A stretch of DNA of 64,000 nt from an uncultured Pseudomonadota bacterium (lineage in GTDB: Bacteria; Oederibacteriota; Muellerivitia; Muellerivitales; Muellerivitaceae), in assembly GCA_963836235.1 (NCBI GenBank), contig CAWIIP010000004.1, forward strand, positions 96,001 through 160,000, given 5' to 3'. Of this stretch, positions 37,914 to 56,364 are shown piece by piece. Numbering within the stretch: the first letter of the stretch is position 1; each line of letters begins with the position of its first letter. The position numbers and the translations under genes were made by a program. The notes under the pieces were generated by a model. That model ran no database searches. It was given only the letters and a program-made list of their open reading frames with translations, and had not been told where the DNA came from.

Positions 37914-37927
37914 GAATAGGGAAATTA

Positions 37928-38740: not shown

Positions 38741-38762
38741 AAACGGCATATATCGCGCTGGC

Positions 38763-38789
38763 TTGACATTGAGTCGCTTATAAGCGACT
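38763..38789 (+). promoter_or_regulatory. TA promoter with perfect 18-bp palindromic operator
   Basis: TTGACA (38763) then AGTCGCTTA-TAAGCGACT (38772-38789). Confidence 0.75.
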
Positions 38790-38807
38790 ATTGAGAAAGG
38801 AACCGTT

Positions 38808-39167
38808 TTGATGGAGCAAAACCCTTGGGCGATAGAACACTATGAAACACGGTCGGGAGTCAAACCCTTTGAGGTCTGGTTTGACCATCAAAGGAAAAGT
38901 GACCCCGTTACAGCGGCCTTAGTTGGCAAAAGAATTTCCCGATTGAGGTTTGGACATTTGGGAGATTACGACAACGTTGGAGATGGGGTTCTCGAACTTA
39001 GGAATTTCCACGGGCCAGGATACCGGATATATACCGGGAGAATTGGGGCCACCATGTACCTTCTTCTTGTGGGAGGAAGCAAGGGAAACCAGAACTCGGA
39101 CATTAAGCTGGCACGGGAATACTTTCGGGAATTTAAGGGAAGAAAGAAGAAGGAAGGTTCAAAATGA
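38808..39167 (+). CDS. RelE/HigB-like addiction module toxin (HI1419 type)
   Basis: PF..W, RI.RL..G..GD...VG.GV.ELR...GPGYRIY, GGSK..Q..DI. Confidence 0.88.
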   Translation: MMEQNPWAIEHYETRSGVKPFEVWFDHQRKSDPVTAALVGKRISRLRFGHLGDYDNVGDGVLELRNFHGPGYRIYTGRIGATMYLLLVGGSKGNQNSDIKLAREYFREFKGRKKKEGSK

Positions 39168-39499
39168 AAAAGAACGCCGCTACAACGGACCACGACGATT
39201 TTATCGTCGGACAGTTAAAAAAGGACCCACGGTTTCTTGAAGCTTACCTAAATGAAGCCCTAAGTGACGAAAACGAGGACCCCCGCGTCGTTCTGGATAT
39301 GCTTCGTAAAGTCGCTGAGGCCAGTGGTGGGGTTAGAAAGTTGGCCCAGGCCGCAGACCTCAACCGGCAGAACCTTTATAAGGCCCTTTCCGCAGAGAAG
39401 GGAAACCCTGAATTTTTCACCATCAATAAGATCGTTAACGCCCTTGGTTTTCATTTCAAGCTTGTCAAAAACAAAAGACGACTGGCGATGGCGAAGTAA
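39164..39499 (+). CDS. HTH addiction module antidote (HI1420 type)
   Basis: YLNEAL, G...LA....NRQNLYKALS..GNP.F.T. Confidence 0.88.
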   Translation: MKKNAATTDHDDFIVGQLKKDPRFLEAYLNEALSDENEDPRVVLDMLRKVAEASGGVRKLAQAADLNRQNLYKALSAEKGNPEFFTINKIVNALGFHFKLVKNKRRLAMAK

Positions 39500-39625: not shown

Positions 39626-39655
39626 GTGTCCACGATTGGGACCCGCATTGGACAG
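39626..39655 (+). repeat. Palindromic cassette-boundary site S1 (degenerate)
   Basis: GTGTCCACGATTGG-GA-CCCGCATTGGACAG. Confidence 0.8.
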
Positions 39656-39723
39656 GATAATTTTAATGATCGAGCCGTTTCTAAAGAGTTGAAATCAAGG
39701 TTGGATATTGAAAGAATCCTTTC

Positions 39724-40497
39724 ATGACCACCCGAATCCTTAAACCCTGGCCCGTTCTGGCGGACGTCATCGCTTCCATTGATCTTCATGACACCGCAAC
39801 CACTGGCGAAGGTCCCGCCTATTCGGTTTTGCCCTCCCCCCAATTTGTCATGGGGTTTCAATTGCAAGGCCGTTTGAAAACGCTTCGTCCTGGGACCGAA
39901 ACAACCCTTACTCCCAGCGGCGTTACCGGACTCCAGGGGCAAAGCCGTCTTTATCAAGGGGTCGGTAAGACCCGGTCCATCCTGGTGCGGTTCAAACCAT
40001 GGGGGCCTTCCTGCTTTTTACCGGGGCCCATGGGCGAGCTGATGAACGAAAGTGTGGATTTGCGCCAGTTGTGGGACCCGCAAGAAGTCAGCGACCTCGA
40101 AGATAAGCTTTATCACTCTACGCCCGGACCGGCGGTGGTCCTCTTGCAAACTTTTCTGGTCAAGTGCCGCCGGTTTCAAACCATCGATCCTCTGGCGCTC
40201 AACGCCGCCCAACGGTTCATCCTCAAAGCGGGTAATGTTTTGATCGGACGCATGGCCGGGGAACTGGCCACCACCGAACGTTCCCTCGAAAGACGGTTCC
40301 AGCAATGGATCGGCACCAGCCCCAAACGGTTCGCGGCCCTGCTGCGCTTCCAGAAAAGCATCCAAATGCTTCAGGCGGGAAAGGATGGAACCGAAGTGGC
40401 CTATGAATGCGGCTATTTCGACCAGGCTCATTTCATCCAGGAATTCAAGAATTTTACCGGTGTTTCACCCCAAAAATACAAAATCGGGCTGCTTTAA
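39724..40497 (+). CDS. AraC-family transcriptional regulator
   Basis: C-terminal double HTH (LERRF...G.SPK, GYFDQAHFI.EFK.FTG.SP). Confidence 0.9.
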   Translation: MTTRILKPWPVLADVIASIDLHDTATTGEGPAYSVLPSPQFVMGFQLQGRLKTLRPGTETTLTPSGVTGLQGQSRLYQGVGKTRSILVRFKPWGPSCFLPGPMGELMNESVDLRQLWDPQEVSDLEDKLYHSTPGPAVVLLQTFLVKCRRFQTIDPLALNAAQRFILKAGNVLIGRMAGELATTERSLERRFQQWIGTSPKRFAALLRFQKSIQMLQAGKDGTEVAYECGYFDQAHFIQEFKNFTGVSPQKYKIGLL

Positions 40498-40582
40498 GAT
40501 TGTCGGATTTTTCCAATAGGTTTTTTTCACTCTTTCCTAAAATTATTCAAGTTGGTTTATTACATCAAACAGGAGGACGTCA

Positions 40583-41245
40583 ATGAAAACGGAACAAAGG
40601 GCAGAGGTTTTGATTAATGTACACAAGGGGCTCCGCCGGGGGCTGTTGGGCCTGGCCCTCAAGCTGGGAGCCCTGGACTGGCAGGATCAGGAAGAGGTCA
40701 AGGCGGCCGGGGCGGATTTCGCCACCATGCTTCACTTTTTAAGGGAACACGCGGCCAACGAGGATCAGATCCAATTTCCTCTGCTGGAAAACAAGGTGTC
40801 CGGGGCCGCCCGCCGGGAAATGGAAGAACACCATCGCCTGGATGCACAGATCGACGATTTGGAAAAACAATGGGTGAGGCTGGCTGTGGAAGAGGACAAA
40901 TCCAAGCCGGGTTACGCCTTCTATCTGGCCTATAACCGGTTCCTTTCGGATTATCTGGCCCACATGGACCACGAAGAGACGGATCTGACCGACGCCCTTT
41001 ATCAAAATTTCACCGACGCTGAAATCGAGGCGGAGTTCAAAAAAATCATCGCCCGCACCCAGCCCGCGGACATGGGCATGATGCTGGGCTATATGATCCC
41101 GGGGATGAATCCGGGGGAGAGGGCCCAGTTCCTTTCCAAGCTTCAAAAGACCGCGCCGGCGCCGGTTTTTGAGAAAGTGAAAGGATTGGCCCAAAAGGTT
41201 CTGTCTTCCGGCGATTGGGAAAAGCTATCAGCACGGTTAGGATAA
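40583..41245 (+). CDS. Hemerythrin-like domain protein
   Basis: HKGLR, H...ED, EH, H...EE ligand pattern. Confidence 0.8.
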   Translation: MKTEQRAEVLINVHKGLRRGLLGLALKLGALDWQDQEEVKAAGADFATMLHFLREHAANEDQIQFPLLENKVSGAARREMEEHHRLDAQIDDLEKQWVRLAVEEDKSKPGYAFYLAYNRFLSDYLAHMDHEETDLTDALYQNFTDAEIEAEFKKIIARTQPADMGMMLGYMIPGMNPGERAQFLSKLQKTAPAPVFEKVKGLAQKVLSSGDWEKLSARLG

Positions 41246-41272
41246 CCGTGATGGTGAAAACCGCTACTAATG

Positions 41273-41302
41273 TTGTCCACGACGGGGACCCATCGTGGAC
41301 AA
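41273..41302 (+). repeat. Palindromic cassette-boundary site S2
   Basis: TTGTCCACGACGGG-GA-CCCATCGTGGACAA. Confidence 0.95.
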
Positions 41303-41346
41303 AGTGATAACCATTTACCGATCAAAAAAACTAGGTTATCTGAAGC

Positions 41347-41694
41347 TCAAGCGTTCTTGTAATCGGTGAGGGCCCAAACCGCCAAAATCACGATCCCGCA
41401 AGTAACATAAAAACCAAGGACCGCTGGTACGGAGGAAAGTCCTAGGACAAAGGGCAGGGCGATGAGGCAGGGCCCGACCACTAATTCGATATAGCCGTGT
41501 ATTTTAAAAGGTATTACCTTCACCAGACCCATGGGAAAGTTCGTCAAGAACGTGAGGGCGAAGTGCACTCCCGCCAGGGAGTAGGAAATGACTGCCGGTA
41601 TCCCTGAAAAATGGAGAAGGGAGGGGGCGGCCAAGAAAACCAAAACAACCACGTAATCCAAATAACCATGAATCTTTGAGTTGATTATTTTCAT
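41347..41694 (-). CDS. Small membrane protein (SPW-repeat-like)
   Basis: Duplicated K.HGY.(D/E) TM module, ends ALTDY. Confidence 0.65.
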   Translation of the reverse strand: MKIINSKIHGYLDYVVVLVFLAAPSLLHFSGIPAVISYSLAGVHFALTFLTNFPMGLVKVIPFKIHGYIELVVGPCLIALPFVLGLSSVPAVLGFYVTCGIVILAVWALTDYKNA

Positions 41695-42338
41695 TTCAAA
41701 GCATCCTTTGCCGCCTTCATTAAATCTTCCGGGTTGACTCTTATTTTAATATCCGCGTTGAAATAAACGAAATGAATAAGACCCTTGGTGTCCACCACAA
41801 AGGCCGCTGGAACGGGCAATTCGTGGAGGGAATTCCCCGTGGCTTTGTCCAGATCGTGGCCGTAACTTTTCATCATCCCCAGCGTTTTCTCATCCAGGCG
41901 ATAGGCCAGGCCGAATTGACGGGTCAACTCCATGGTCCGGTCGGAAAGCAGGATATAGTTGATCCCGTGTTTCTCCAGGCTTTCCTTCAGGCTTTCGGGT
42001 TTGTCCGGCGTAATCGCCAAGACTTGATAACCCATTTTCATCAAATCAGGTTCGATCTTCACCAATTGGCCCATTTGCAAGTTGCAATAGGGACACCATC
42101 CCCCCCGGTAAAAAATAAGGATACTGGGCTTTTGGGAAATAAGGGTTTTGAGGGCCACCTTTTTTCCATCAAGGGTCGTCAGCTCCCCGTTGGGAATGCT
42201 TTGCCCCTTTTTGAGGGGTTGGACATCCTGCGGATTATCGTAAATCGGTTTTTTCATGGAATCGGCCCGAGCCATTTCAACCATTCCCAAACCTCCTCCA
42301 AAAAGAACCGTCAGGATGAGCGCCCATCGCTTTAACAT
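41691..42338 (-). CDS. Secreted AhpC/TSA peroxiredoxin-like protein
   Basis: Signal peptide; FYRGGWCPYCN, LPVPA.FVVD. Confidence 0.85.
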   Translation of the reverse strand: MLKRWALILTVLFGGGLGMVEMARADSMKKPIYDNPQDVQPLKKGQSIPNGELTTLDGKKVALKTLISQKPSILIFYRGGWCPYCNLQMGQLVKIEPDLMKMGYQVLAITPDKPESLKESLEKHGINYILLSDRTMELTRQFGLAYRLDEKTLGMMKSYGHDLDKATGNSLHELPVPAAFVVDTKGLIHFVYFNADIKIRVNPEDLMKAAKDALK

Positions 42339-42471
42339 TCACCACCTCCGTGATTTTTAGTTTCCCGATGATTTGAAGGGATGAATACCTGGCCCTAGTT
42401 ATGAGGGCAAATACGTTCATCTGGTATGAAAAGTTACTTCCCTTGACCAAAACAAAGGTAAAGTATTGGCC

Positions 42472-42501
42472 TTGTCCACGACGGGGACCCGTCGTGGACA
42501 G
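42472..42501 (+). repeat. Palindromic cassette-boundary site S3
   Basis: TTGTCCACGACGGG-GA-CCCGTCGTGGACAG. Confidence 0.95.
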
Positions 42502-42539
42502 GCAAACCGACGGTTGAATCGGCCCCAATTTCGGTGTAT

Positions 42540-42553
42540 TCTTACTGGTAAGA
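42540..42553. promoter_or_regulatory. Probable antitoxin operator
   Basis: TCTTAC-TG-GTAAGA palindrome just upstream of the AbrB-type gene. Confidence 0.55.
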
Positions 42554-42570
42554 TTACTGGGAGGTAACCT

Positions 42571-42831
42571 ATGACAGTAGCGACCACAAAGCTTTCCTCG
42601 AAGGGGCAGGTAGTTATTCCTGAATCCATCCGCAAGAGCCTGCATCTCAAAGAAGGAGACCAATTCGTCGTCGTCGGCCAGGGGGATTCGGTGATCTTCA
42701 AAGCCATCACCCCGCCTTCCCTGAATCAACTTGACGGCTTACTGGCGACGGCGCGAAAGCAGGCGCGTGAAGCCAGCTTGCGCCCATCGGATATAAAGAC
42801 CGCGATTGCCCGGGTCCGGCGCGGTAAATGA
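42571..42831 (+). CDS. AbrB/MazE/SpoVT-family antitoxin
   Basis: SSKGQVVIP..IR..L.L..GD. Confidence 0.9.
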   Translation: MTVATTKLSSKGQVVIPESIRKSLHLKEGDQFVVVGQGDSVIFKAITPPSLNQLDGLLATARKQAREASLRPSDIKTAIARVRRGK

Positions 42832-43229
42832 AAAGGATTGTTGTAATCGACACAAATGTTCTTGTGTCAGGAATCTTCTGGAAAGGGACACCTTACCAAG
42901 TAATTAAATCTTGGGAACGGGGCGACTTCAAGTTGTTGGCATCCCCGGAAATCTTTGATGAATACCGCCGTGTCTTCGCCGACCTTGCCAAACGGCATCC
43001 CGGCGTCGAGGTTGGGGCCATCCTTGAAATTATCGAATTGAATTGCGAATTGGTGAATGCCAAACCTGTCCACGGTGTTTGTAAAGACCCAGATGATGAT
43101 AAGTTCATAGCAGTGGCATTGGCAGGTGGCGCTGAGTTTATTGTCTCAGGCGACAAGGCATTGTTGGATGTTGGGGTTCATCAAAATGTTAAAATCATGA
43201 ATCCGTCCAATTTTCTGAAAAACCTATAA
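42828..43229 (+). CDS. PIN-domain toxin (VapC-like)
   Basis: VIDTNVLVS, DPDDDKF, IVSGDK.LL; overlaps antitoxin stop. Confidence 0.9.
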   Translation: MKRIVVIDTNVLVSGIFWKGTPYQVIKSWERGDFKLLASPEIFDEYRRVFADLAKRHPGVEVGAILEIIELNCELVNAKPVHGVCKDPDDDKFIAVALAGGAEFIVSGDKALLDVGVHQNVKIMNPSNFLKNL

Positions 43230-43234
43230 TTGGG

Positions 43235-43264
43235 TTGTCCACGACGGGGACCCGTCGTGGACAG
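43235..43264 (+). repeat. Palindromic cassette-boundary site S4
   Basis: TTGTCCACGACGGG-GA-CCCGTCGTGGACAG, 5 nt after the PIN stop. Confidence 0.95.
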
Positions 43265-43300
43265 GCTAAATTGAAAAGTATGTTTATAGATGAGGCTTAA

Positions 43301-43978
43301 ATGAAGCGAAAATTAATCATGATACTTTTTTTATCATGCTCACAATTATGGGCAATTACACCCACGGCATCCCCTGGGCCCGACCCATCTGATGTCGAGG
43401 TAGTGAAGGATATTGATAATCCGAATAAAACCATTACAGCCGATTTTAAAGAAATTTTTATTAAGGCGAGCCATCAACCAACAAATATGGTTTGGCCCTA
43501 TTATCTAGACTTGGAAGGAAGGGGTCGGGACGAAGTCATAGTTTTTGGGGGTAGCAAACTTTTAGTTTTGAATCCAAATACTTTAAAAGTCGTTTTTGTA
43601 TTAAAAAACGATTTTAAAATTGATTTCGATACTGACGATAATATTCATTTTGGCCGAATTATTCAAAAAGGGCCCTATTGTTTTTGGTTTGAAAAAATCA
43701 CAAAAGTTCCAATGGCTGAAAATATGGTTCTTATGTCTTATGACTGGTCCTATGAGTGGTTTTTTTATTCTTTCATAGATGGCCAATGGAAAAGAGTTTT
43801 TTGCCAGAAATTTATAGGGCAGGATGACCACTACGGTGATGATCCCAACAATGAGGTGGATTTAAAGGATGGTAATTTAAGATGTGTAGATGTAACGGCA
43901 AGATGGGATAAAAAGTATAATTGCTTTGTTAAAATAGCTAAAACCAAGTTTAAGGCCCACACTGGTACCGGAAATTGA
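43301..43978 (+). CDS. Hypothetical secreted protein (AT-rich cassette)
   Basis: 225 aa ORF with signal peptide filling S4-S5. Confidence 0.7.
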   Translation: MKRKLIMILFLSCSQLWAITPTASPGPDPSDVEVVKDIDNPNKTITADFKEIFIKASHQPTNMVWPYYLDLEGRGRDEVIVFGGSKLLVLNPNTLKVVFVLKNDFKIDFDTDDNIHFGRIIQKGPYCFWFEKITKVPMAENMVLMSYDWSYEWFFYSFIDGQWKRVFCQKFIGQDDHYGDDPNNEVDLKDGNLRCVDVTARWDKKYNCFVKIAKTKFKAHTGTGN

Positions 43979-43997
43979 ATTTGAGACACATTAGATG

Positions 43998-44027
43998 ATG
44001 TCCACGATGGGGACCCGTCGTGGACAG
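43998..44027 (+). repeat. Palindromic cassette-boundary site S5
   Basis: ATGTCCACGATGGG-GA-CCCGTCGTGGACAG. Confidence 0.95.
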
Positions 44028-44036
44028 GGGACACCA

Positions 44037-44066
44037 TTGCATTGTAACTACATTGTAGTGTATACT
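44037..44066 (+). promoter_or_regulatory. brnTA promoter with palindromic operator
   Basis: TTGCAT-18-TATACT; ACTACA-T-TGTAGT (44047-44059) in the spacer. Confidence 0.65.
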
Positions 44067-44072
44067 TAAGCC

Positions 44073-44345
44073 ATGCTCGTCATTTGGGATCCCCAGAAAG
44101 CTATTTCCAATCTAAGAAAGCACGGGGTCTCATTTGAAGAGGCCCAATCCGTCTTGGAATCCGACGTTCAGTTGGTGCTGGAAGACAGGGGACACCACGA
44201 AGAAAGATTCGTCGCGCTTGGGTATTCGAAGAAACTAAACCTATTGGTGGTGGTTTACGCGTATCGGGAGATCGATGTTATTCGGATCATCTCGGCCCGT
44301 AAGGCCATACGAAAGGAAAGGGAAAACTATGAAAAAAGAATATGA
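44073..44345 (+). CDS. brnT: BrnT-family toxin
   Basis: WD..K...N..KHG.SF, EERF, IRIISARKA. Confidence 0.9.
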   Translation: MLVIWDPQKAISNLRKHGVSFEEAQSVLESDVQLVLEDRGHHEERFVALGYSKKLNLLVVVYAYREIDVIRIISARKAIRKERENYEKRI

Positions 44346-44586
44346 TTTTTCAAAAGCTAAGGTTCATAAAGGCCCTCTGTTGGCTTCCAAGGGCTCTAAA
44401 ATTCAGAAAACTTTCCGGTTGGATGAGTCTGTTTACCTTTGGCTCATCGAGGAAGGCAAAAAACTAGGAATCCCCTATCAAACCCTCATGAACTCGATTT
44501 TGAAGCGTTCGATGTCCGATAACTCAACCCTCGAAGAACGCGTCCGAAAAATCGAACATAAATTAGGCCTGAAAAAGACAGGCTGA
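44329..44586 (+). CDS. brnA: BrnA-family antitoxin
   Basis: MKKEYDFSK, RLD..V..W, GIPYQTLMN..L. Confidence 0.88.
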   Translation: MKKEYDFSKAKVHKGPLLASKGSKIQKTFRLDESVYLWLIEEGKKLGIPYQTLMNSILKRSMSDNSTLEERVRKIEHKLGLKKTG

Positions 44587-44623
44587 TTTCCTCGAACAAA
44601 TCGGTTTTGTGAACTCGAAAACT

Positions 44624-44653
44624 CTGTCCACGGCGGGGACCCGTCGTGGACAC
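44624..44653 (+). repeat. Palindromic cassette-boundary site S6
   Basis: CTGTCCACGGCGGG-GA-CCCGTCGTGGACAC. Confidence 0.95.
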
Positions 44654-44701
44654 TTAAATTAAAAATGTGCTTTTAATCGAATGGGCGGGAGGAATTCTTA
44701 A

Positions 44702-45235
44702 GTGCGGCATTTTCTTTCGATGGTTTTGATTTTTGTGTTAGCGCCGATAGTGTGGGCAGACGAGGGTACCCCGGTCCCCACCCCAACCCACCCCCCTATC
44801 ACAACCCATTGGACGACCCTGGGAGGAATGCAATATTTACAAAATAACAAGGCGTTATCCGGGCCTGAGTTGAAAGATCTTATTAACTCCATCGACGATC
44901 AACAAGCCACCGCACTTCTGAATAAATCTGAATCGGATGAAACGCTAGGATTTTTTGGATTGGGTGGTTCGGTAATCCTGTCGGTTGGGTCTTTATTCTT
45001 CCCGAATACGCATATCTACATATTTGGCCTGGATATTTCCACTCCTTATATGCCTATCGCCGTTCCGGGGGCGGTTTTAGGCGTCGCGGGCGGGCTCCTT
45101 GAACTCGAAGCCAATACCGCCAAATACGCCTCTGTCCAACGCTATAACCACGTTACTAAACAATCGGATTCAATTACTTGGAACCTCACTCCCCAAAAAG
45201 ACGGTTTGGGCTTAAGTTTAGGTTATAGCTTTTGA
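44702..45235 (+). CDS. Hypothetical secreted/membrane protein
   Basis: Signal peptide, TPTH linker, C-terminal GLSLGYSF strand. Confidence 0.65.
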   Translation: MRHFLSMVLIFVLAPIVWADEGTPVPTPTHPPITTHWTTLGGMQYLQNNKALSGPELKDLINSIDDQQATALLNKSESDETLGFFGLGGSVILSVGSLFFPNTHIYIFGLDISTPYMPIAVPGAVLGVAGGLLELEANTAKYASVQRYNHVTKQSDSITWNLTPQKDGLGLSLGYSF

Positions 45236-45267
45236 ATACCAGATCAAATTGGGATTGAAAGAGTTCT

Positions 45268-46530
45268 ATGGTTAAGAAGGGCTTTACACAAAAACGTTCC
45301 CGGCGGGTTACCCTGAAAAAAACCTCTTTTCTCTATCTGTCTTTATTTGTAATGACAATGCTCTCCCTCGGATTCCTTTTTCAGGGTTGCACTTTACTTT
45401 TTGTGTCAAAAGGCGAAACACGGTACGTCGAAAATAAGACGCCTCAAACTCCCCCAGCGCCGTCACTCTCCCGTCAAATGAATAAAACGGTTGTTTTAAA
45501 ATACAAAGTTCAGGAAGGGGATACCTTCCAGTCCATTGCCGCCATTTACTATGGCGTGACTTCAAAAGCATCCAAGGTGGCATCCGCAAACCATTTGAGC
45601 CTGAAATCGAAGTTGAAAGAAGGAAAGGTCTTGAGGATCGTGGACCCGGTTAATTTCCCGAACCCCAAGGAATTGGTGAAGAAGAAACCGACAGCCCAGA
45701 CTACGACTGAAACCCCGAAACCCGGCCCTATATCCCACCTAGATACCACGCCGGAAAACATCACCCAAGTACCCCGTCCTAAAAAGAACTACGCCTTTGG
45801 GCCCGGAGAAAAGCTTACCTTTGAAGTAAAAGCTCTTTCCATGGTGGGGGGATACGGGACATTGGAGATTGGGAATCCGGTCACTGTCCAAGACCGTCCT
45901 TGTTATCCACTGTCCGCCAAAGCCACGGCGGCTTTTCCTTTCAGCATGGTTTACCAGGTACATGATGTGCAAACGAGTTATTTTGATGTGGTGGACTTCC
46001 TGACCTGGAAATTCGAGAACGACGTTCTGGAAGGCAAGCACAAGGCCCAGAACTTGGAAATCTATGACCAGGTCAAACACAAGGTCGTACGGTCCAAGGG
46101 AAATGAGCCTCCTGAGGAAATAGACATAGCCCCCTTCACCCAGGACATTATTTCCTGCTTTTTCTACTTCCGCCTTCTGCCTCTCGAAGTCGGGAAGAAC
46201 TATTCCATTCCCGCTCAGGCCGCAGGCTACAACTATAACTTGATCGTGGAGGTCATCAAAAAAGAACGAATTACCATACCTTCCGGTACTTATGATTGTC
46301 TGTTAGTGAAACCCCATGTCCGGTACGCGACGGTTTTTCGCAACACGGACGATATCAATATTTGGCTTACCGATGACCAAAGGCATTTGCCGGTATTGGT
46401 CACCAGCAAAATATTTATCGGAAATGTTGAGGCGACCCTTATCGAGGCTAACCTGCCAAAAGTGAAAGAACCTGAGAAAAAGCCCGAACCAAGAATCCAA
46501 ACCCATAAGCGCAAAAAGGAGGAAGAATGA
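45268..46530 (+). CDS. LysM + DUF3108-like protein
   Basis: YKVQEGDT..SIA..YYG LysM; GEKL.F.V, E.ITIPSG.YDC, IWL.DD.R..PV. Confidence 0.75.
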   Translation: MVKKGFTQKRSRRVTLKKTSFLYLSLFVMTMLSLGFLFQGCTLLFVSKGETRYVENKTPQTPPAPSLSRQMNKTVVLKYKVQEGDTFQSIAAIYYGVTSKASKVASANHLSLKSKLKEGKVLRIVDPVNFPNPKELVKKKPTAQTTTETPKPGPISHLDTTPENITQVPRPKKNYAFGPGEKLTFEVKALSMVGGYGTLEIGNPVTVQDRPCYPLSAKATAAFPFSMVYQVHDVQTSYFDVVDFLTWKFENDVLEGKHKAQNLEIYDQVKHKVVRSKGNEPPEEIDIAPFTQDIISCFFYFRLLPLEVGKNYSIPAQAAGYNYNLIVEVIKKERITIPSGTYDCLLVKPHVRYATVFRNTDDINIWLTDDQRHLPVLVTSKIFIGNVEATLIEANLPKVKEPEKKPEPRIQTHKRKKEEE

Positions 46531-47012
46531 ACGATCCTCAGGAAATTAATCGAACTTTTAACCGTCCATTTTCGAAAGCGGCCTTTCTTCTCCTGCTTTT
46601 GCTCTTACTTCCAACTCCAAAAGCCTATTGCCGTAACGAAGCCGTAACCATCCCGCTTATCGCGGCGGATTATTATGGATGGGCCTATACCGAAGCCTTC
46701 ATGGATAAGTCCTATGTTTACGGCTGGTCCACGGCAGGCGTGGACACCTTGGGGTGGACGATCCTTCTGACACGGAAGGAATATTCGGGTTTGTTTTTCG
46801 TCAATGTGGCGGGCATCGCCAAAACCGTGTATCCGGTGGTACAGCTTTTAGCTTCGTCGGACTCGGATACCCGAAGCCGGGCGTGGATTGCCTTGGGTAC
46901 CCATACCGCGACGCTGATAAGCCTGGAACTTTTAGGCAAACCGGCTTTGAGCATTCAAACCATGGTTCCTAAAAATGGGGGCTATGGGGCGTCGTTGGCT
47001 TTTCGGTTTTAA
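46527..47012 (+). CDS. Hypothetical secreted/membrane protein
   Basis: Signal-like hydrophobic stretch; C-terminal aromatic strand; overlaps upstream stop. Confidence 0.6.
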   Translation: MNDPQEINRTFNRPFSKAAFLLLLLLLLPTPKAYCRNEAVTIPLIAADYYGWAYTEAFMDKSYVYGWSTAGVDTLGWTILLTRKEYSGLFFVNVAGIAKTVYPVVQLLASSDSDTRSRAWIALGTHTATLISLELLGKPALSIQTMVPKNGGYGASLAFRF

Positions 47013-47039
47013 AATAACACCAAATAATAAGAGGGAAAA

Positions 47040-47414
47040 ATGGACGATTTGATTCTGTATTTAGGTGCTTTCCTGATTGGGTCTATTCCGTTCGGATTTT
47101 TGTTGGCAATGACGTTCAAGAAAATCGACTTGAGGAAAAAGGGGACCGGCGATGTCGGCGTGACCAATGCCTGGAAGGTAGCGGGTACCCCATTGGGCCT
47201 GTTGACGCTAGTTTTGGATATTTTAAAAGGTGGCACGGCAATTTTCCTGGCCCATGGACTTTCCCCCAAAGACCAGCCGGATTGGGTTCTGGCCGGTTTC
47301 CTAGCCTTGCTTGCCGATGAATTTCCCGTTTTCTTAAAGTTCAAGGGCGGTAGAGGGATCGGAACAAGCATAGGCGTTTTTGCGTCGCTTCTTTACTGGA
47401 TGTTGAGTAAGTAA
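47040..47414 (+). CDS. Short PlsY-like glycerol-3-phosphate acyltransferase (truncated/degenerate)
   Basis: GSIPFG, DLR..G.G..G.TNA, D.LKG, FKGG.G; 124 aa; His of the GH.FP motif replaced (ADEFP). Confidence 0.7.
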   Translation: MDDLILYLGAFLIGSIPFGFLLAMTFKKIDLRKKGTGDVGVTNAWKVAGTPLGLLTLVLDILKGGTAIFLAHGLSPKDQPDWVLAGFLALLADEFPVFLKFKGGRGIGTSIGVFASLLYWMLSK

Positions 47415-47456
47415 AGGATCCAGCATTTTATAAACTCGTTGAAATGGTGAAAACCC

Positions 47457-47486
47457 CTGTCCACGACGGGGACCAGCCGTGGACAA
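47457..47486 (+). repeat. Palindromic cassette-boundary site S7
   Basis: CTGTCCACGACGGG-GA-CCAGCCGTGGACAA. Confidence 0.92.
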
Positions 47487-47523
47487 CCTCGTCCAGGCTT
47501 TTTGAACCTCACAGTGGTATGAG

Positions 47524-48300
47524 TCAGTTTTTGAAAATGCTCCAAATGTGATTAAGGAATTTTTTTGGTTTTGGCCCTGTTTCATTTTTTTGAACATCCG
47601 GCTTGGCAAGATCAAAGAGAAGAATTTCGGTGGGCATTTGGGCCGTAAATGAAACGGAAATTTCATCGGATAAACCGGCACCATCCCCTGTTTGAAGTTT
47701 TAGATCATTCATTAGAATTTGACCGCTCACCACATGAAGCCATCCGTTTCGGTCCGGGCCAAGCTCATGAATTACATGATTGCCCTTTTGAATGAGCGTG
47801 GAGTACATCCGAACGTCCTTTTGTATTTTGAGCGATTCCTTTTCCCCCTCGGGAGAGGCGATGAGTTTCAAAATCCCCTTCCGTTCTGCGTGAGTAAAGT
47901 GTTTTTTTCTATTGCCCGGTTTCGACACAAACATGCTTGGGATAAACCCGCTTTGGAAGACATGTGCGTCATCGGTTAGCAAAGTGTCGAACCCATACTC
48001 TTTTATGACGGAAGCGAGATTGATCTGATGGATTTCCCCGGATTCAAGCAACCCGGACGTTCCCAATGGGCCATCATAGATAATTAAGCCTTCCTTAACA
48101 TAAGCTACGATCACTGCATTCTCATGGGTGCTTAGTATGAATCCCGTACCTGGGGAAAGTATTTCTTCGTTGAATATTTTGAGTCCGCCAAACCCATTTT
48201 GTAGGGAATCGGTATTATTTTCCCAGTCGAAGGTTCTCCAGGTGTTTCGAACATTGTCCGCAATATGACGACGTTCTTCCGACTTCCGCACGTTAATCAT
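47524..48300 (-). CDS. Pirin-like bicupin (YhhW/YhaK type)
   Basis: GFG.L...NEE, SLKIQ.DV, R.GWLHVV.G, GDGA, EILLFDL. Confidence 0.8.
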   Translation of the reverse strand: MINVRKSEERRHIADNVRNTWRTFDWENNTDSLQNGFGGLKIFNEEILSPGTGFILSTHENAVIVAYVKEGLIIYDGPLGTSGLLESGEIHQINLASVIKEYGFDTLLTDDAHVFQSGFIPSMFVSKPGNRKKHFTHAERKGILKLIASPEGEKESLKIQKDVRMYSTLIQKGNHVIHELGPDRNGWLHVVSGQILMNDLKLQTGDGAGLSDEISVSFTAQMPTEILLFDLAKPDVQKNETGPKPKKFLNHIWSIFKN

Positions 48301-48580
48301 TTTTTTGATTTCGTAATCGTTATTGGACGTTCAGCGAAGTCTAGTATGAGTCGGTTTAAAAAAGTTCGGGGGGGGGCGAAATTTTAGATAGAACTCTCAT
48401 GGGAGATTCTCCGAAGCGGTGGATTGTGTGCGAAAAAATTGATGTTTAAAATATACCCTGGTTTGAAAATTAAACCTGCCGAATTCGAAACTATTTAATA
48501 TTCAAGATTCTCCCACTGGCAGATTTATCAAAATGAGAGCCATGAAAAAGGAAAAAATGGTTAAATTTAGGAGTTGAGGG

Positions 48581-48610
48581 TTGTCCACGACGGGGACCCG
48601 TCGTGGACAG
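48581..48610 (+). repeat. Palindromic cassette-boundary site S8
   Basis: TTGTCCACGACGGG-GA-CCCGTCGTGGACAG. Confidence 0.95.
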
Positions 48611-48650
48611 GGCGAAACCATAAAAAGTCGTTCCATTGGAGGTGAATTTA

Positions 48651-49085
48651 ATGGCTATTGATACCAGTGGCAAGTTCTGGAAAGGTCAAAACACCGACGA
48701 CTTGATCGAATATATCCGTCTTCTCACAAAAGAGGGATATCCCACCAGTAAACATGTCGTCGCTAAATGTACCTGCGGAAAACAACACTTCCAACTTACC
48801 GCTGACCAAGATGAAGGATGCGCCAAACGCATTTGTACTTCCTGCGGGAAAGAAACGTTTATTTGCGATAGTGAAGAAGCGTGGCAGGACTCCTCCTCGA
48901 AGAAATTAAAGTGTAAATGCAAAACGGACATTTTTGAGATCGTTGTTGGCTTTTCCCTGAGAGACGATGGTGAGATAAAATGGGTTAACGTCGGTCAACG
49001 ATGTGTTAATTGCGGAATACTTGGGTCGTATGTTAATTGGGGTATTGATTATGCTCCAACGAAACAACTTTATACGATGGTATGA
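48651..49085 (+). CDS. Hypothetical Cys-rich (double zinc-ribbon-like) protein
   Basis: CTCG, CTSCG, CKC, CVNCG; GGAGGTG RBS. Confidence 0.75.
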   Translation: MAIDTSGKFWKGQNTDDLIEYIRLLTKEGYPTSKHVVAKCTCGKQHFQLTADQDEGCAKRICTSCGKETFICDSEEAWQDSSSKKLKCKCKTDIFEIVVGFSLRDDGEIKWVNVGQRCVNCGILGSYVNWGIDYAPTKQLYTMV

Positions 49086-49086
49086 C

Positions 49087-49102
49087 TTGTCCACGACGGG
49101 GA
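49087..49102 (+). repeat. Half site S9 (left arm + central GA)
   Basis: TTGTCCACGACGGG-GA then GGCAAAG. Confidence 0.9.
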
Positions 49103-49115
49103 GGCAAAGTAAACA

Positions 49116-49403
49116 ATGTATTTTAAGTTTTTGAATAAGCCGATACCAAAACGTGTTTACATTGAAACTAAATGGCTAAGGAAATTAGTGGCTTGGTATC
49201 TTATAGTTCACACGTTAATAGGGTATTTAATATTCTGGAAAATTTTTCCCCGGTATCATGCAGATGGTTCACTGAACCCTTGGTATTTTGTTTTTTTGCC
49301 CGTGATGTTGTTATGCGTTCTTATAACTTTTGTTATCTTTTATTGCTTTGTGGGTTATGTGGAAAAGTTTTTCCTTAAAAAGCCAAAAAATATAAAAAGA
49401 TGA
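49116..49403 (+). CDS. Hypothetical two-TM membrane protein (AT-rich cassette)
   Basis: 95 aa ORF filling S9-S10. Confidence 0.6.
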   Translation: MYFKFLNKPIPKRVYIETKWLRKLVAWYLIVHTLIGYLIFWKIFPRYHADGSLNPWYFVFLPVMLLCVLITFVIFYCFVGYVEKFFLKKPKNIKR

Positions 49404-49408
49404 TTAGA

Positions 49409-49438
49409 TTGTCCACGACGGGGACCCATCGTGGACAG
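49409..49438 (+). repeat. Palindromic cassette-boundary site S10
   Basis: TTGTCCACGACGGG-GA-CCCATCGTGGACAG. Confidence 0.95.
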
Positions 49439-49481
49439 GGAAAAGGCTTTAGAAGGCTTTTCGATATGAGGAGTAAAATTA

Positions 49482-49811
49482 ATGAGCGATGAAGAGATTT
49501 TTGAAAGCGCCATCAATCAAAACGGGGATTTGGGCGCTGTATTCGAACGGGCGGACGGCACTTGTTACTTTTACTTATGCAAAATAAAAGATGGAAAACC
49601 AGATGGGGTAATGGACACGATTCATGTCACCTCAAAAAAACCTGATTTTGGTCAAAAGGATATTGAAGTGAAGTGGAATCACTCAGGGGAAAAGGTTGGT
49701 TTCTTAGTGAAGGGGAAACTCGTTGCATTTTTTGACACGAAAACGAAAAGCAAACATGGAGAGAATATGACTCCGATTATTCCGGAGATCGTCGAAAGCT
49801 TCGGGGTTTAG
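49482..49811 (+). CDS. DUF2251-like hypothetical protein
   Basis: VFE..DGT.YFY and W...G.K.G......A.FD pattern; GAGGAG RBS. Confidence 0.6.
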   Translation: MSDEEIFESAINQNGDLGAVFERADGTCYFYLCKIKDGKPDGVMDTIHVTSKKPDFGQKDIEVKWNHSGEKVGFLVKGKLVAFFDTKTKSKHGENMTPIIPEIVESFGV

Positions 49812-49832
49812 AAAGCAAACAATAATTTGAGG

Positions 49833-49862
49833 TTGTCCACGATGGGGAGCCGTATTGGACGG
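49833..49862 (+). repeat. Palindromic cassette-boundary site S11 (degenerate right arm)
   Basis: TTGTCCACGATGGG-GA-GCCGTATTGGACGG. Confidence 0.88.
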
Positions 49863-49964
49863 TTAAATGATTAGTAGGCTTATTCAATAAGGGGAGGCGT
49901 TTATGAAATGGTGGATGAAAGGCCATTTTAATGGCGTTGAATTCATGTGGTGTGAGGTTCACAA

Positions 49965-50627
49965 ATGTTTCTGAATAGAGAAAAATATAAATGGTCTTTT
50001 GTTGGGATCGTTATAGGTTTTTTAATAGCGGGATGTTTTTGTAATGGTTTATTGTTTCATGAATGGAAAGATGTTATGGCGGCGTTGATTGGAGCTGCAG
50101 TTGGCGGTGGAGTTACATGGCTTACTACCAGAGAATTAATAGATCAACAAATTAAACTTGAAAAAGTGAAAAGCGAATTAATACAAATTCACTTCATTAA
50201 AGCCGTGAAAACAGAAATTAAAATTCTAAAAGATATTTATATGCAAATGGTTGGTAACGAAACTGAAAAACTTAAAGTTGGAGAACCTTTGAACCTTACG
50301 TGGTCAAATCACCAAGATTATTTTACGATTTATCAAGGCAACAGCAGTTTTATAGGTGGGGTGACAGATGATGCCTTGCGGGAATTGATTGTGGCCACAT
50401 ATGCGAAGGCGAAGGGGTTGTTGGATTCATACAGTCACAATAACGAATTGGTTGAAAGACTAGATTATTTAGCTAAAGAAAGTCGCACAGGATTTGGTAT
50501 GAAGCCGACGGTTACCGCAGAACAGTACAAAGATCATTTAACAATGATGGTTAAATATGCCGAAGGTATCAAAGGTTCGCATCAAGACTTTTTAAAAAAC
50601 GTAAATGAGTTATTGGCGAAAATCTAA
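49965..50627 (+). CDS. Hypothetical membrane-anchored helical protein
   Basis: Two N-terminal TMs (ALIGAAVGGGVT), helical C-terminus; AT-rich. Confidence 0.7.
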   Translation: MFLNREKYKWSFVGIVIGFLIAGCFCNGLLFHEWKDVMAALIGAAVGGGVTWLTTRELIDQQIKLEKVKSELIQIHFIKAVKTEIKILKDIYMQMVGNETEKLKVGEPLNLTWSNHQDYFTIYQGNSSFIGGVTDDALRELIVATYAKAKGLLDSYSHNNELVERLDYLAKESRTGFGMKPTVTAEQYKDHLTMMVKYAEGIKGSHQDFLKNVNELLAKI

Positions 50628-50640
50628 AAGGGGGTCTTGG

Positions 50641-50656
50641 TTGTCCACGACGGGGA
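50641..50656 (+). repeat. Half site S12 (left arm + central GA)
   Basis: TTGTCCACGACGGG-GA then GGCGTCC. Confidence 0.9.
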
Positions 50657-50793
50657 GGCGTCCTTCTTAATTGCAATCCCAAGACCTGGCCCCATTTTTT
50701 CAGACCCAATTTTCCATAATCGTACGAGATGGTCAACACGGTTAGTCTCATTTCCATTCTAACGTCCTTAGGACTTTCAACCGTTTTTAAATA

Positions 50794-51387
50794 ATGGTAA
50801 AATTTCTTAACATGAGCAAAAAACTTGGAATTTTCATTGATAGCTGTGCTTGGAATTTCCTTTACGACCACGGAATAAATTTGTCCAAAGAATTGCCAGT
50901 GGATGAGTTTGATTTATTTGTTACGAAAGAAGTTGGTTCGTTCGAGATTCCAGAAATTCCTGAAGAGAAGAAAGGCCTCGCGGAATACATTCGAAAACAA
51001 AGGGAGGAGCGAGGCGTTAAGGAAGATTCGTATTTTGGTTTCTCTTCTTACAATGACCCGCCGGAAAAGCGATACAGAATTGGCGGTTTTGGTGAAGGGC
51101 GATTTGCAACTTACCGGGATGCAGAAGTGTTGAAGAAATTCCAGATAATACCGGCTCCGGGAGAAAAAGAGGGGAAGACAGGTCTTTATAAGAATGAAGC
51201 GGATGCCTCTCTCGCCGTCAGAGCTGGTGTTGGGAATGTTGTGTTGACAGCAGAGAAATTGAATAAAGGGCCGTTAAAAAAAGCCTCAAGTGAGTATGGG
51301 CGAGTAGTTAGTTTGTTGGGCTTTAATCCTTCAAATCAATCCTTGAAGAATTACATAATCTCGTCAGTTAAACCGAACAAACATTAA
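50794..51387 (+). CDS. Hypothetical protein, possible PIN-like fold
   Basis: IFIDSCAWN, ADASLA, VVLTAE resemble PIN acidic motifs. Confidence 0.5.
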   Translation: MVKFLNMSKKLGIFIDSCAWNFLYDHGINLSKELPVDEFDLFVTKEVGSFEIPEIPEEKKGLAEYIRKQREERGVKEDSYFGFSSYNDPPEKRYRIGGFGEGRFATYRDAEVLKKFQIIPAPGEKEGKTGLYKNEADASLAVRAGVGNVVLTAEKLNKGPLKKASSEYGRVVSLLGFNPSNQSLKNYIISSVKPNKH

Positions 51388-51423
51388 CATACTTATTTGG
51401 TCCAACTGATTATTTCGACCTTT

Positions 51424-51453
51424 TTACCCATGGCGGGGGAGTGGTGTGGATAA
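51424..51453 (+). repeat. Possible highly degenerate terminal site S13
   Basis: TTACCCATGGCGGGGGAGTGGTGTGGATAA; 19/30 identity by hand; at the expected position after the last cassette. Confidence 0.35.
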
Positions 51454-51510
51454 CAACCAAGCCCCTTTTAACCCGTTGCTTTGAATTTCCCTTGGAGGTT
51501 TTTTTAGCCA

Positions 51511-52242
51511 ATGTGTGGACGATACATAATCAGCTCTGATCCCGGTAAGGTTGCCAAGGACTTTAAGGCCGACCCTTACGAGTCCTTTAAGCCCAGCTAC
51601 AATGTCAAGCCGACCCAAAAGGCCCCGATCATTCGCCTGAACCCCGAAACCGGAAAAAGGGAACTGGTCCTGGTCAAATGGGGGATGCCTTTTTTTGACC
51701 TGAAATCCAAGAAATATATTTATAAGCTTATCAACGCCGTGGGCGAGACCATCACCGAGAAAGCGACCTTCAAGAAGCATTTCAGGGAAGACAGATGTTT
51801 GGTTCCTGTAGACGGCTTTTACGAATGGAAGGAAATCTCCAGTAAGTTGAAACAGCCTTACTTCATCGAGTTAAAGGCCAAAGGCACCTTCGCTTTTGCC
51901 GGTATTTGGGGCCGGTGGAACATGACGGTGGACGACGAAGCCACCATCCTCAAAAAGAAAATGGTAAACCCCAATTACGAACCCAAAAAGGAGGAAGTCG
52001 AGACTTTCTCCATTATCACAACCACCCCCAACAAACTGCTGAAAGAAATCCATAACACCAAGCCCCGTATGCCGGTCATCGTCGAAAAAAAGAATTGGGA
52101 TGCTTGGTTGGACCGTTCCTTCCAGGAGGAGGGTTCTTTAAAAGGCTTCTTGCGGTCTTATCCCGATGAGAAAATGCAGGCATGGCCGGTCAAGCCGCTC
52201 TCCGGGGATGATGCTTCGCTTATTGAAAAAGTAAAGATTTAG
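51511..52242 (+). CDS. SOS response-associated peptidase (SRAP/YedK/HMCES family)
   Basis: N-terminal MCGRY, YNVKPTQ, RCLVP.DGFYEW, IH...RMP. Confidence 0.93.
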   Translation: MCGRYIISSDPGKVAKDFKADPYESFKPSYNVKPTQKAPIIRLNPETGKRELVLVKWGMPFFDLKSKKYIYKLINAVGETITEKATFKKHFREDRCLVPVDGFYEWKEISSKLKQPYFIELKAKGTFAFAGIWGRWNMTVDDEATILKKKMVNPNYEPKKEEVETFSIITTTPNKLLKEIHNTKPRMPVIVEKKNWDAWLDRSFQEEGSLKGFLRSYPDEKMQAWPVKPLSGDDASLIEKVKI

Positions 52243-52244
52243 GA

Positions 52245-52451
52245 ATGAAAGACTTTCCTTTTTGGCGCGGGGCGATCTACGCCGCAAAGACAGCTCTTAT
52301 TTTAAAAACCGTTGGGGAGGATCTTTCAAATTTCCAAGCCCAATCCGGGCTTTTTGGCGACGAGGAGAAGAAGCTGACCGACGAACAAGTGGCTGTCCTG
52401 CGCACGCAATACTCTGAAAAGATGAAAAAACTTATCGCGGAGAGGATTTGA
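52245..52451 (+). CDS. Hypothetical small protein
   Basis: 68 aa ORF tightly packed between SRAP and next gene. Confidence 0.45.
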   Translation: MKDFPFWRGAIYAAKTALILKTVGEDLSNFQAQSGLFGDEEKKLTDEQVAVLRTQYSEKMKKLIAERI

Positions 52452-52930: not shown

Positions 52931-52987
52931 AAAATTCTTCAATTCCCTGAAAATTCTCTCATTTCAAATTTACTAACTCATTAAAAC

Positions 52988-53029: not shown

Positions 53030-53054
53030 TACCCTATTTCGCAAGGATATTGTC

Positions 53055-56355: not shown

Positions 56356-56364
56356 GGAGGGGGT

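Follow-up and report, generated by a model that had tools for sequence, protein, structure and literature searches.

What gathers unrelated genes one behind the other between copies of a single short sequence, and what moves them from one such array to the next? The question is raised by a 64,000-nucleotide stretch of DNA (hereafter the window) from an uncultured peat bacterium, genome G000, whose contigs are named C1 to C5 and in which the window occupies C4:96001-160000; other G- and L-numbers denote comparison genomes and loci. Between positions 39626 and 50670 of the window, 12 copies of a 30-base palindrome, TTGTCCACGACGGG-GA-CCCGTCGTGGACAR, delimit 11 unrelated gene units. The explanation favored here, with a probability of roughly 0.6, is that these units are cassettes moved by conservative site-specific recombination at the center of the site, most likely through a serine recombinase of 275-283 residues derived from the large serine recombinases (LSRs).

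Gene units bounded by a palindrome

A scan of the plus strand of the window for positions within three mismatches of the 30-mer returned eight, against 0 expected in 100 shuffles, and at a threshold of at least 19 of 30 matches all 12 positions listed in an earlier reading of the same sequence (the original prediction) were recovered, with GGGGA on the plus strand in 12/12, that is, co-oriented throughout. Mismatches to the consensus number 6 at 39626 (S1), 2 at 41273 (S2), none at 42472 and 43235 (S3 and S4), 2 at 43998 (S5), 3 at 44624 (S6), 4 at 47457 (S7), none at 48581 (S8), 8 at 49087 (S9), 1 at 49409 (S10), 5 at 49833 (S11) and 8 at 50641 (S12), S9 and S12 being half-sites that retain the left arm and the GA center only. 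A thirteenth copy, tentatively proposed at 51424, falls below 19/30 matches and had to be dropped, while the window contains one further match, at 21988, which has 11 mismatches and amounts to noise. The remainder of the earlier description of the motif holds: all 12 sites sit between long open reading frames (ORFs) in a single orientation, plus-strand stop codons end 1-42 nt upstream of the following site, and the motif, said to be absent from 35 kb of core genome, has no real copy in the first 35 kb of the window. The intervals between sites measure 322-2833 bp and bear genes, and the GC content per kb of the array ranges from 0.38 to 0.54.

These intervals behave as cassettes, as had been proposed, and are modular and mobile between arrays and genera. 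When the array was searched against the genomes of the family, five of its units were found to recur in other genera, where homology stops at the sites and the neighbors are unrelated. The S1-S2 unit is present with 96% identity in G042 (L003), between two sites and with other neighbors; the S3-S4 unit, at 84%, stands beside sites in G045 (L004) and G023 (L005); the S4-S5 unit, at 80%, lies between two sites in G016 (L008); and the S5-S6 unit, at 85-88%, lies between sites in G001 (L006) and G005 (L007). The closest match is that of the S6-S7 unit, 99.5% identical over 2858 bases in G018, a member of a different genus in which the downstream neighbor is another one. A homolog of cassette 2 (78%, G004, L011) has no sites, and neither do other homologs of window genes (L009-L012), as is expected of cassette sources. 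Within the genome itself, a 1245-bp unit encoding an NHL-repeat protein is found in two arrays (C2:1195351-1196596 and C4:57528-58773) and is bounded by sites in both. On a wider scale, among 251 fully flanked sites from this genome and the retrieved loci, pairs with only the left flank in common number 41, those with only the right flank in common 76 and those with both 17, these counts containing some duplicates since loci overlap.

Public metagenomes offer a further view of the same junctions. Four of 21 listed peat or moss runs, from four studies and each with at most 46% of the sampled words, were compared as assembled contigs, no weight being given to stretches of the array that these contigs leave uncovered. 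The S7 junction is bridged as in the window by contigs of three runs; in the fourth (X7), a 2852-base contig lies exactly on S6-S7 (44624-47474), and two short contigs continue past S7 into sequence unlike the window. Thirteen apparent joints in the public contigs, having 20-35 letters on their short side and lying inside repeated sites, were regarded as repeat artefacts and not as excision products.

The site is found throughout the genome and conserved throughout the family. At a threshold of at least 22/28 matches the genome holds 67 sites, vs. 0 in a reversed-genome control; 59 of them fall in 11 clusters of at least three, on four of the five contigs, and within each of these clusters all GA-centered sites are co-oriented. 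As regards the dispersal in the manner of a repetitive extragenic palindrome (REP) that the original prediction had set against its own reading, the sites do occur genome-wide, yet they are clustered and share one orientation. An 18-mer comprising the left arm and the core is present with at most one mismatch in 29 of 31 family genomes (0-96 copies each), and a 26-mer with at most three mismatches in 21 of 24 family genomes and, as one weak hit, in the single sister-family genome (1/1), with no match in 15 genomes from eight other families of the phylum. The same 28 bp are conserved across 16 genera, and an exact-match scan with one genome per species yielded 48 loci, all from metagenome-assembled genomes and mostly labelled candidate division FCPU426. 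It should be kept in mind that the comparison genomes are representatives or draft bins, and that related genomes are not independent samples. The exact 26-mer was not found in the one viral contig collection searched, and no known RNA family of Rfam matched the sites at E ≤0.1.

Site orientation also follows GC skew, with all sites on the plus strand on C4, where cumulative skew rises, and all on the minus strand on C5, where it falls; this agreement places the core GGGGACCC mostly on the presumed leading strand, although the array at C2:1.19-1.21 Mb, where skew is flat, does not conform. No array is located at the GC-skew extreme of contig C1. The hypothesis of a dif site was discarded, since even site-poor genomes hold small clusters and not one site, and one 97%-complete genome has zero.

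The orientation of units relative to the site is fixed: abutting flank matches are direct in 132 cases (82 + 50) vs. 2 inverted, both of the latter tracing to one locus with one pair of convergent sites. This count bears on a passive account of the pattern, in which the palindrome is a REP- or terminator-like hairpin and units, once transferred, are reassorted through template switching or homologous recombination at the 30-bp repeats. The canonical copy indeed folds into a perfect stem at -17.7 kcal/mol (z = -5.75; other strand, -17.5 kcal/mol), the sites are located shortly past stop codons, their orientation tracks the replication strand, group II introns, which favor hairpins, insert at the site, and any exchange within a shared 30-mer leaves each arm with its own flank. 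Homology between palindromic arms, however, should invert units as readily as it keeps them direct. Moreover, S1 and S9, which do not fold (-7.5 and -1.6 kcal/mol), still mark unit boundaries, no compensatory change between the arms was detected in the logo set described below, and the sites are clustered, not dispersed. Y1 transposases, the enzymes associated with REPs, are absent from site-rich G018, G001 and G023 and present in site-less G017, while the conservation of 28 bp across so many genera and the linkage of a dedicated recombinase gene to the site would be unexpected of a passive hairpin, which is thus a rather unlikely explanation. That both strands fold alike, and that some sites are unable to fold, argues for a double-stranded substrate.

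The exchange point and the candidate enzyme

The logo of 240 unique sites carries at most 0.32 bit of information outside positions 1-30, so that conservation does not extend beyond 30 bp. The site spans 28 bp, from TGTC to GACA, and consists of inverted arms of 13-14 bp (TGTCCACGAYGGG) around an asymmetric GA, which occupies the center in 205 of the 240 sites and in 226 if 21 more, read as TC through mis-orientation in the scan, are included. Positions 17-19 vary (GCC, GGC, TCC, GGT) in approximately 10% of sites, and the arms are unequally conserved, with 70-80% at positions 20-23 vs. 79-90% at positions 8-11.

The point of exchange was located by comparing sites that share one flank (at least 95% identical, duplicates removed). 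Five pairs sharing the upstream flank differ within the site only at positions 11, 19-23, 26 and 30, and eight sharing the downstream flank only at positions 1, 2, 7, 8, 11 and 12. Two contigs of G018 illustrate the rule: in its contig C40, another unit is followed by a site identical to S7 and then by the start of the pirin unit (first 143 bases 100% identical), while in the second, the S6-S7 unit is followed by a site that equals S7 at positions 1-18 and differs at 19-22, with another unit after it. Arm variants therefore segregate with opposite flanks, the left arm with the upstream and the right arm with the downstream one, which places the exchange within positions 13-18, around GA. The exchange point is central (GGGGACC).

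A central exchange point could also be the work of a host tyrosine recombinase, for instance a single Xer-like protein acting on an 11 + 8 + 11 site, in which case the arrays would be chromosomal relatives of the pdif/dif modules of Acinetobacter. The 11-8-11 reading fits the logo, an overlap of 6-8 bp can be accommodated around the center, and the greater variability of one arm resembles the asymmetry between XerC and XerD. A ubiquitous housekeeping enzyme would, in addition, explain arrays in genomes that have no serine recombinase, and the genome does encode one good Xer-like protein (C1:328954-329805, 154.6 bits) and a weaker one (74.9 bits), both being below the cut-off of 329.6 of the XerD model, the only one used. 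The Xer-like gene lies 41 kb from the nearest site, however, and among 59 site-bearing loci only L032 has a tyrosine recombinase, which is of the island-integrase type. The variation seen at positions 17-19 would disturb an 8-bp overlap, the sites are co-oriented and do not alternate as in pdif modules, and the skew extreme of C1 is devoid of arrays. Taken together, these observations make an Xer-type mechanism unlikely.

The favored enzyme is a serine recombinase. Only two genes of the genome encode a resolvase domain. One of them specifies the candidate, a 278-residue protein (G000:C2:163827-164660), and the last site of a different array is found 36 bases past its stop codon. This protein combines a Resolvase domain (PF00239, residues 13-159) with a Recombinase domain (PF07508, residues 187-271, profile positions 4-102 of 102), with no HTH_7 match. 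In the large protein collection searched, its 19 closest clusters (74-100% identity) are all 275-283 residues long and all lack the zinc-ribbon domain (PF13408), which relatives at 61% identity or less possess; in the alignment, the short clade stops 10-15 residues after KLWEKVQ, where the CxxC ribbon of the relatives begins. YxRVSS and further catalytic-core residues are invariant in 28 aligned sequences, and the ratio of nonsynonymous to synonymous divergence (dN/dS) between five genomes of four genera, 0.09-0.17 with a dS of about 1 or more, or saturated, indicates purifying selection. An AlphaFold model with a mean pLDDT (predicted local distance difference test) of 78.6 matches the LSR structures 4bqq (a crystal of the N-terminal and recombinase domains), 4kis (a DNA complex), 9dxh and 9iu2.

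Gene and site are tightly linked. In four of the five family genomes with an intact gene, a site follows the stop codon at 0-40 bp in convergent arrangement, the fifth retaining a half-site, and at every locus examined sites occur only 3' of the gene. Seven metagenome contigs encode close relatives: all five that reach beyond the stop codon show a site 8-110 bp downstream of it, one of the other two is cut inside site-like sequence, and the last ends within the gene. No site was seen beside LSR relatives at 55-61% identity (0/73 contigs), nor beside four full-length relatives in the family-genome comparison. This is the only recombinase type repeatedly found in site-bearing loci, and genomes with an intact gene carry a median of 63 sites vs. 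5 in the others (one-sided Mann-Whitney p = 0.003, related genomes not being independent). The array system thus probably uses the shortened serine recombinase as its enzyme, and the serine-recombinase geometry noted in the original prediction gains support.

Several features of the surroundings of the gene deserve mention. A second arm type, TTGTCCCCT(A/T)GGGG, replaces TTGTCCACGACGGG at or near recombinase-adjacent sites (L121, L122, C2:164697 and C2:168008), and in L121 both arms of the site are of this type. In one sublineage (L079, L080, L125), a 13-base palindrome, TCAGTA-N-TACTGA, stands between the stop codon of the short recombinase and the site. At C1:399375, the same ~130 bases and the matching divergent arm are kept without the recombinase gene.

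The mechanism that can be proposed follows that of serine recombinases, in which each site is bound by dimers and two sites come together in a synapse; all four strands are then cleaved at the central dinucleotide, one half of the complex rotates, and the ends are rejoined. The enzyme would be an LSR derivative that has kept the catalytic and 'recombinase' domains and lost the zinc-ribbon/coiled-coil domain, one recombinase domain probably contacting each arm of 13-14 bases. As the putative catalyst of exchange, the 278-residue protein would cleave at GA, and cassettes would be excised and inserted at the center of the site, the upstream cassette keeping the left arm and the downstream cassette the right arm. 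Polarity would be set by the non-palindromic GA: GA is not self-complementary, so only sites aligned in parallel can religate, and direct repeats would consequently release the intervening DNA as a circle. Such a circular intermediate would bear one site, whose left arm derives from the downstream site and whose right arm derives from the upstream site, and the reverse reaction could insert the circle at any site. Since the sole copy of the gene is located at the end of another array, the enzyme would act on the array of the window in trans.

A number of observations weigh against this proposal. The breakpoint is only bracketed to positions 13-18, by few informative pairs (5 + 8), an interval that fits a tyrosine-type overlap of 6-8 bp as well as a serine-type one of 2 bp. 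Neither a circular cassette nor an empty site was seen in the assembled contigs of the public runs, raw reads being needed to look for either. An intact short recombinase is present in just 5 of the 31 family genomes; no resolvase-domain gene was found in the site-rich G005 (46 sites), G021 (36), G023 (39), G010 (29) and G016 (19), and G018, which has the most sites (96), carries only a gene fragment. In this genome, 10 of the 11 arrays, including that of the window, have no adjacent recombinase, and no LSR lacking the zinc-ribbon/coiled-coil domain is known to be active. Most close homologs are found on contigs of 1-5 kb, and in draft bins whose contigs are broken at repeats the absence of a gene is weak evidence, though this does not explain the absence away; the short contigs would fit an assumed loss of the gene at repeat-induced assembly breaks.

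Other elements also make use of the site. A group II intron is present in two copies of 1959 bases that are 99.85% identical and carry an ORF for reverse transcriptase and maturase (C1:223030-224988 and C2:1476543-1478501); each interrupts a site between positions 20 and 21. A different intron lineage starts directly after position 30 in other genomes (L029, L031, L051), with several copies per contig. Genes for IS110-family (DEDD) transposases occur within a few kb of sites in L029, L035, L038 and L041, all in other genomes of the family. A Cas1-Cas2 unit of 1.5 kb (C1:431300-432930, L107; also L108, L109, L113 and L116) has no CRISPR array within 18 kb; in five contexts a half-site (right arm TTCGTGAACAA) opens the unit, and unrelated DNA takes over abruptly at its other end. 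Its copies, of which one genome has four, share 98-99% nucleotide identity across three genera, and the unit may represent a Cas1-based element that exploits or ends arrays.

Such a crowd of visitors evokes the possibility that the palindrome is merely a landing pad, the short serine recombinase being the integrase remnant of an element once integrated there as at an attB site, with no single enzyme moving the cassettes. At least two group II intron lineages, the Cas1-Cas2 unit and possibly IS110 elements target the site, the recombinase-proximal arm is often divergent, as an attP-derived half would be, and 5'-truncated copies of the gene exist. Yet a search of 164 kb on the opposite side of the gene in this genome revealed no second hybrid site, and the strictly 3' position of the sites is equally at odds with an integrated element. 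The 19 close clusters share one truncation at a domain boundary and are under purifying selection, which is not expected of decaying integrases, and the cassettes mostly have no mobility gene. This possibility is regarded as quite improbable, and recombination by a dedicated short serine recombinase remains the preferred reading.

The other enzymes considered as movers of cassettes were rejected. The three genes for Y1 transposases, the REP-associated tyrosine transposases (RAYT), each lie at least 11 kb from any site and do not co-occur with it; IS110-family transposases are absent from this genome; and of its six island-type tyrosine integrases only one is within 6 kb of an array. Cas1 was also set aside: the single Cas1-Cas2 unit abuts a site, but only 5 of the 31 genomes have it, with 96-100% identity, and it resembles a passenger or an exploiter. 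Proteins of 591-784 residues whose N-terminus weakly resembles ParB_N, and which carry no further known domain, are encoded at C1:368632-370986, C2:1205629-1207404 and C5:39555-41432; they stand at the edge of 3 of 11 arrays and near sites in two other genomes (L009, L098), and were likewise not retained as recombinase candidates.

Cassettes of the window and their island

All 12 sites of the window lie on the plus strand, as do all cassettes except the second and the seventh. The first site, S1 (39626-39655), has a divergent left arm, GTGTCCACGATTG, and a right arm of the GCATT variant that belongs to the AraC unit; G042 (L003) has an identical right arm but a different left flank. Cassette 1 (39656-41272) encodes an AraC-family regulator (39724-40497) and a hemerythrin-domain protein (40583-41245) and is separated by S2 (41273-41302) from cassette 2 (41303-42471, minus strand), with an SPW-repeat protein (41347-41694) and an AhpC/TSA peroxiredoxin (41691-42338). 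S3 (42472-42501) and S4 (43235-43264), both with perfect consensus, frame cassette 3 (42502-43234), a VapBC-like pair of a MazE-type antitoxin (42571-42831) and a PIN-domain toxin (42828-43229). Cassette 4 (43265-43997) holds an ORF of 225 residues (43301-43978) with no Pfam or PADLOC family, and cassette 5 (44028-44623), enclosed by S5 (43998-44027) and S6 (44624-44653), a BrnT toxin (44073-44345) and a BrnA-like antitoxin (44275-44586).

Cassette 6 (44654-47456) is the longest and comprises four ORFs: one of 177 residues without family, one with LysM and DUF3108 domains (45268-46530), one of 161 residues without family, and a PlsY-like one of 124 residues (47040-47414), which matches only positions 2-102 of the 164 of the PlsY profile (glycerol-3-phosphate acyltransferase) and may be a truncated gene. 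It is followed by S7 (47457-47486), whose right arm, of the CCAGCCG variant, belongs to the pirin unit, cassette 7 (47487-48580, minus strand), with its pirin or quercetinase-like cupin protein (47524-48300). The next site, S8 (48581-48610), again shows perfect consensus and precedes cassette 8 (48611-49086), whose ORF of 149 residues (48636-49085) has no family. In the half-site S9 (49087-49116), the left arm and GA are followed by a right arm that is off consensus, GGCAAAGTAAACAA, and no hairpin forms; cassette 9 (49117-49408) carries an ORF of 95 residues (49116-49403), also without family. Cassette 10 (49439-49832), behind S10 (49409-49438), encodes a DUF2251 protein (49482-49811), and cassette 11 (49863-50640), behind S11 (49833-49862), whose right arm is divergent, an ORF of 220 residues (49965-50627) with a weak SLATT_1 match (19.1 bits vs. 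a cut-off of 26.3). The array ends at the terminal half-site S12 (50641-50670), where left arm and GA give way to island backbone.

Searches against Pfam thus support the contents named in the original prediction (AraC with hemerythrin, peroxiredoxin, VapBC-like, BrnT/BrnA and pirin-like units) and add the unit of four ORFs, while a PADLOC search of ten unassigned ORFs gave no hit. By Pfam, the cassettes of the window mostly have no mobility gene of their own.

The array is embedded in an island that begins at a tRNA gene (35762-35834), its likely attachment point, behind cysS and a SpoU methylase gene. The backbone 5' of the array (35762-39499, plus strand) continues with a TraD/TraG-like coupling ATPase (36072-37913), an ORF of 270 residues, and a small ORF with an antidote-family ORF (38808-39499); 3' of the array (50794-57516, plus strand) are an ORF of 197 residues, SRAP (51511-52242), UmuD-like (53055-53522), UmuC-like (53488-54759) and ArdC-like (56608-57516) proteins. 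The downstream part of the island, up to position 64000, also encodes RadC, two WYL regulators, an FtsZ/tubulin-like protein and GmrSD. A second island, paralogous to that of the window and located at C4:196.5-217 kb, shares its backbone and has no sites, which indicates that the array is an insertion into the cargo region of the island. The divergent left arm of S1 and the missing right arm of S12 would be the trace expected of a cassette circle that integrated at a pseudo-site.

The copy of the island in the window has no integrase, and neither a recombinase nor a remnant of one was found in the window, where no tyrosine recombinase is encoded. Related island modules (C4:196.5-217 kb, C5:269.5-273 kb, C2:1182.8-1186.6 kb, C2:1371.7-1374.9 kb and C2:507-509.6 kb) each lie beside a tyrosine integrase of ~370 residues. 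Carriage on a mobile element, as first proposed, is therefore correct for this array, which is inside an island; the system as a whole is not island-bound, its 11 arrays being spread over four contigs and its occurrence being family-wide.

Relation to integrons and other known systems

The closest parallels in layout are integrons and the clusters of attC sites lacking integron integrases (CALIN), which likewise consist of arrays of small, unrelated, mostly co-oriented cassettes that end a few bases before a palindromic site, with many toxin-antitoxin units, a recombinase gene at one end of some arrays and none at many others, and group II introns that home to the site, attC being targeted by such introns as well. 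The arrays could then be a true integron, or a CALIN, with unusually short attC sites, a reading favored by the co-oriented sites, the small and mostly promoter-poor units and the toxin-antitoxin cassettes. The attC sites of integrons, however, measure 55-140 bp, are conserved in structure rather than in sequence, and display R''/R' boxes (RYYYAAC...GTTRRRY), an imperfect stem and extrahelical bases, their crossover lying at one end, which makes almost the entire site move together with the upstream gene. The site described here is a near-perfect palindrome of fixed sequence and 28-30 bp, with no R''/R' box, nothing conserved past 30 bp and a perfect stem that is equal on both strands; its crossover is central and not 3'-terminal, as a result of which the two arms belong to different cassettes. 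No IntI was identified, the best match to the integron-integrase model (TIGR02249) reaching 40.9 bits vs. a cut-off of 265, and the enzyme proposed here, a serine recombinase, is encoded by a gene oriented convergently to the array. An integron in the strict sense is hence very hard to credit, and the original prediction was right in holding that the site is not attC.

In its architecture the site resembles those of small serine recombinases, such as res site I of Tn3 and gamma-delta or hix and gix, which are 26-28 bp long, with inverted 12-bp arms that start with TGTC-like sequence and an asymmetric 2-bp center, here 28 bp from TGTC to GACA and GA. Small serine recombinases, of ~180-200 residues with a C-terminal helix-turn-helix, depend on accessory sites or an enhancer and act by resolving or inverting a single segment; the present candidate, in contrast, has 278 residues and the LSR 'recombinase' domain, no accessory sites are evident, and its sites form long direct arrays. 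Fold and sequence family instead match the LSRs, including CcrA/B of the staphylococcal cassette chromosome (SCC), elements that can stack in tandem between short att repeats and some of which have no ccr genes of their own. The likeness has limits: the zinc-ribbon/coiled-coil region is missing here, the sites are alike and palindromic and not distinct attP and attB, the cassettes are of 0.3-2.8 kb vs. tens of kb, many arrays per genome replace a single locus, and the matches to the three NCBIfam models for CcrA, CcrB and CcrC score 75.3 (CcrB), 69.5 and 29.7 bits vs. cut-offs of 900, 700 and 900.

Resemblances to other repeats are more distant. The pdif modules of Acinetobacter, moved by XerC/XerD, are, in the portion of that literature consulted, similarly small accessory modules, often of the toxin-antitoxin type, that are bounded by ~28-bp sites and occur in varied contexts; they are flanked by alternating sites, and dif is unrelated in sequence to the site described here. 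By contrast, the present sites are direct, the arrays are chromosomal and belong to an uncultured phylum, and no XerC/XerD pair was found with the XerD model. REPs and their RAYT enzymes share with the system a short, GC-rich, intergenic palindrome, conserved within a lineage and present in tens of copies, but here the sites form clusters with a common orientation and delimit exchangeable units, and no co-occurrence of Y1 transposases with the sites is apparent among the 31 genomes. A CRISPR array was rejected in view of the length of the gene-bearing intervals, non-coding spacers being of ~26-72 bp, and of the location of the only Cas1 of the genome on another contig.

The arrays are thus best described as a new, integron-analogous cassette system. 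Its fullest form, a family-wide and independently evolved analog of integrons in which an LSR without the zinc-ribbon/coiled-coil domain recombines identical double-stranded palindromes of 28-30 bp at GA and thereby captures, stacks and shuffles cassettes of 0.3-3 kb between arrays and genera, has in our estimation about even odds of being correct. The portion of the literature that was searched yielded nothing on mobile elements of FCPU426 or on cassette arrays based on serine recombinases. If correct, this would be the first cassette platform independent of a tyrosine recombinase and of a folded, single-stranded attC, and it would come with a naturally minimal serine recombinase and its 30-bp site. 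Should the 278-residue enzyme prove able to act on that site with no accessory factors, it would rank as an unusually compact serine recombinase, and the orientation rule set by the central dinucleotide would be easy to test.

To our knowledge, integrons have so far stood as essentially the only device of their kind for storing and rearranging genes. An equivalent layout assembled from unrelated parts would imply that cassette platforms are a convergent solution and not a one-off, and would offer a second system in which the genesis of cassettes can be studied. It would also give insight into how plastic genomes are in a phylum for which metagenomes are the sole source.

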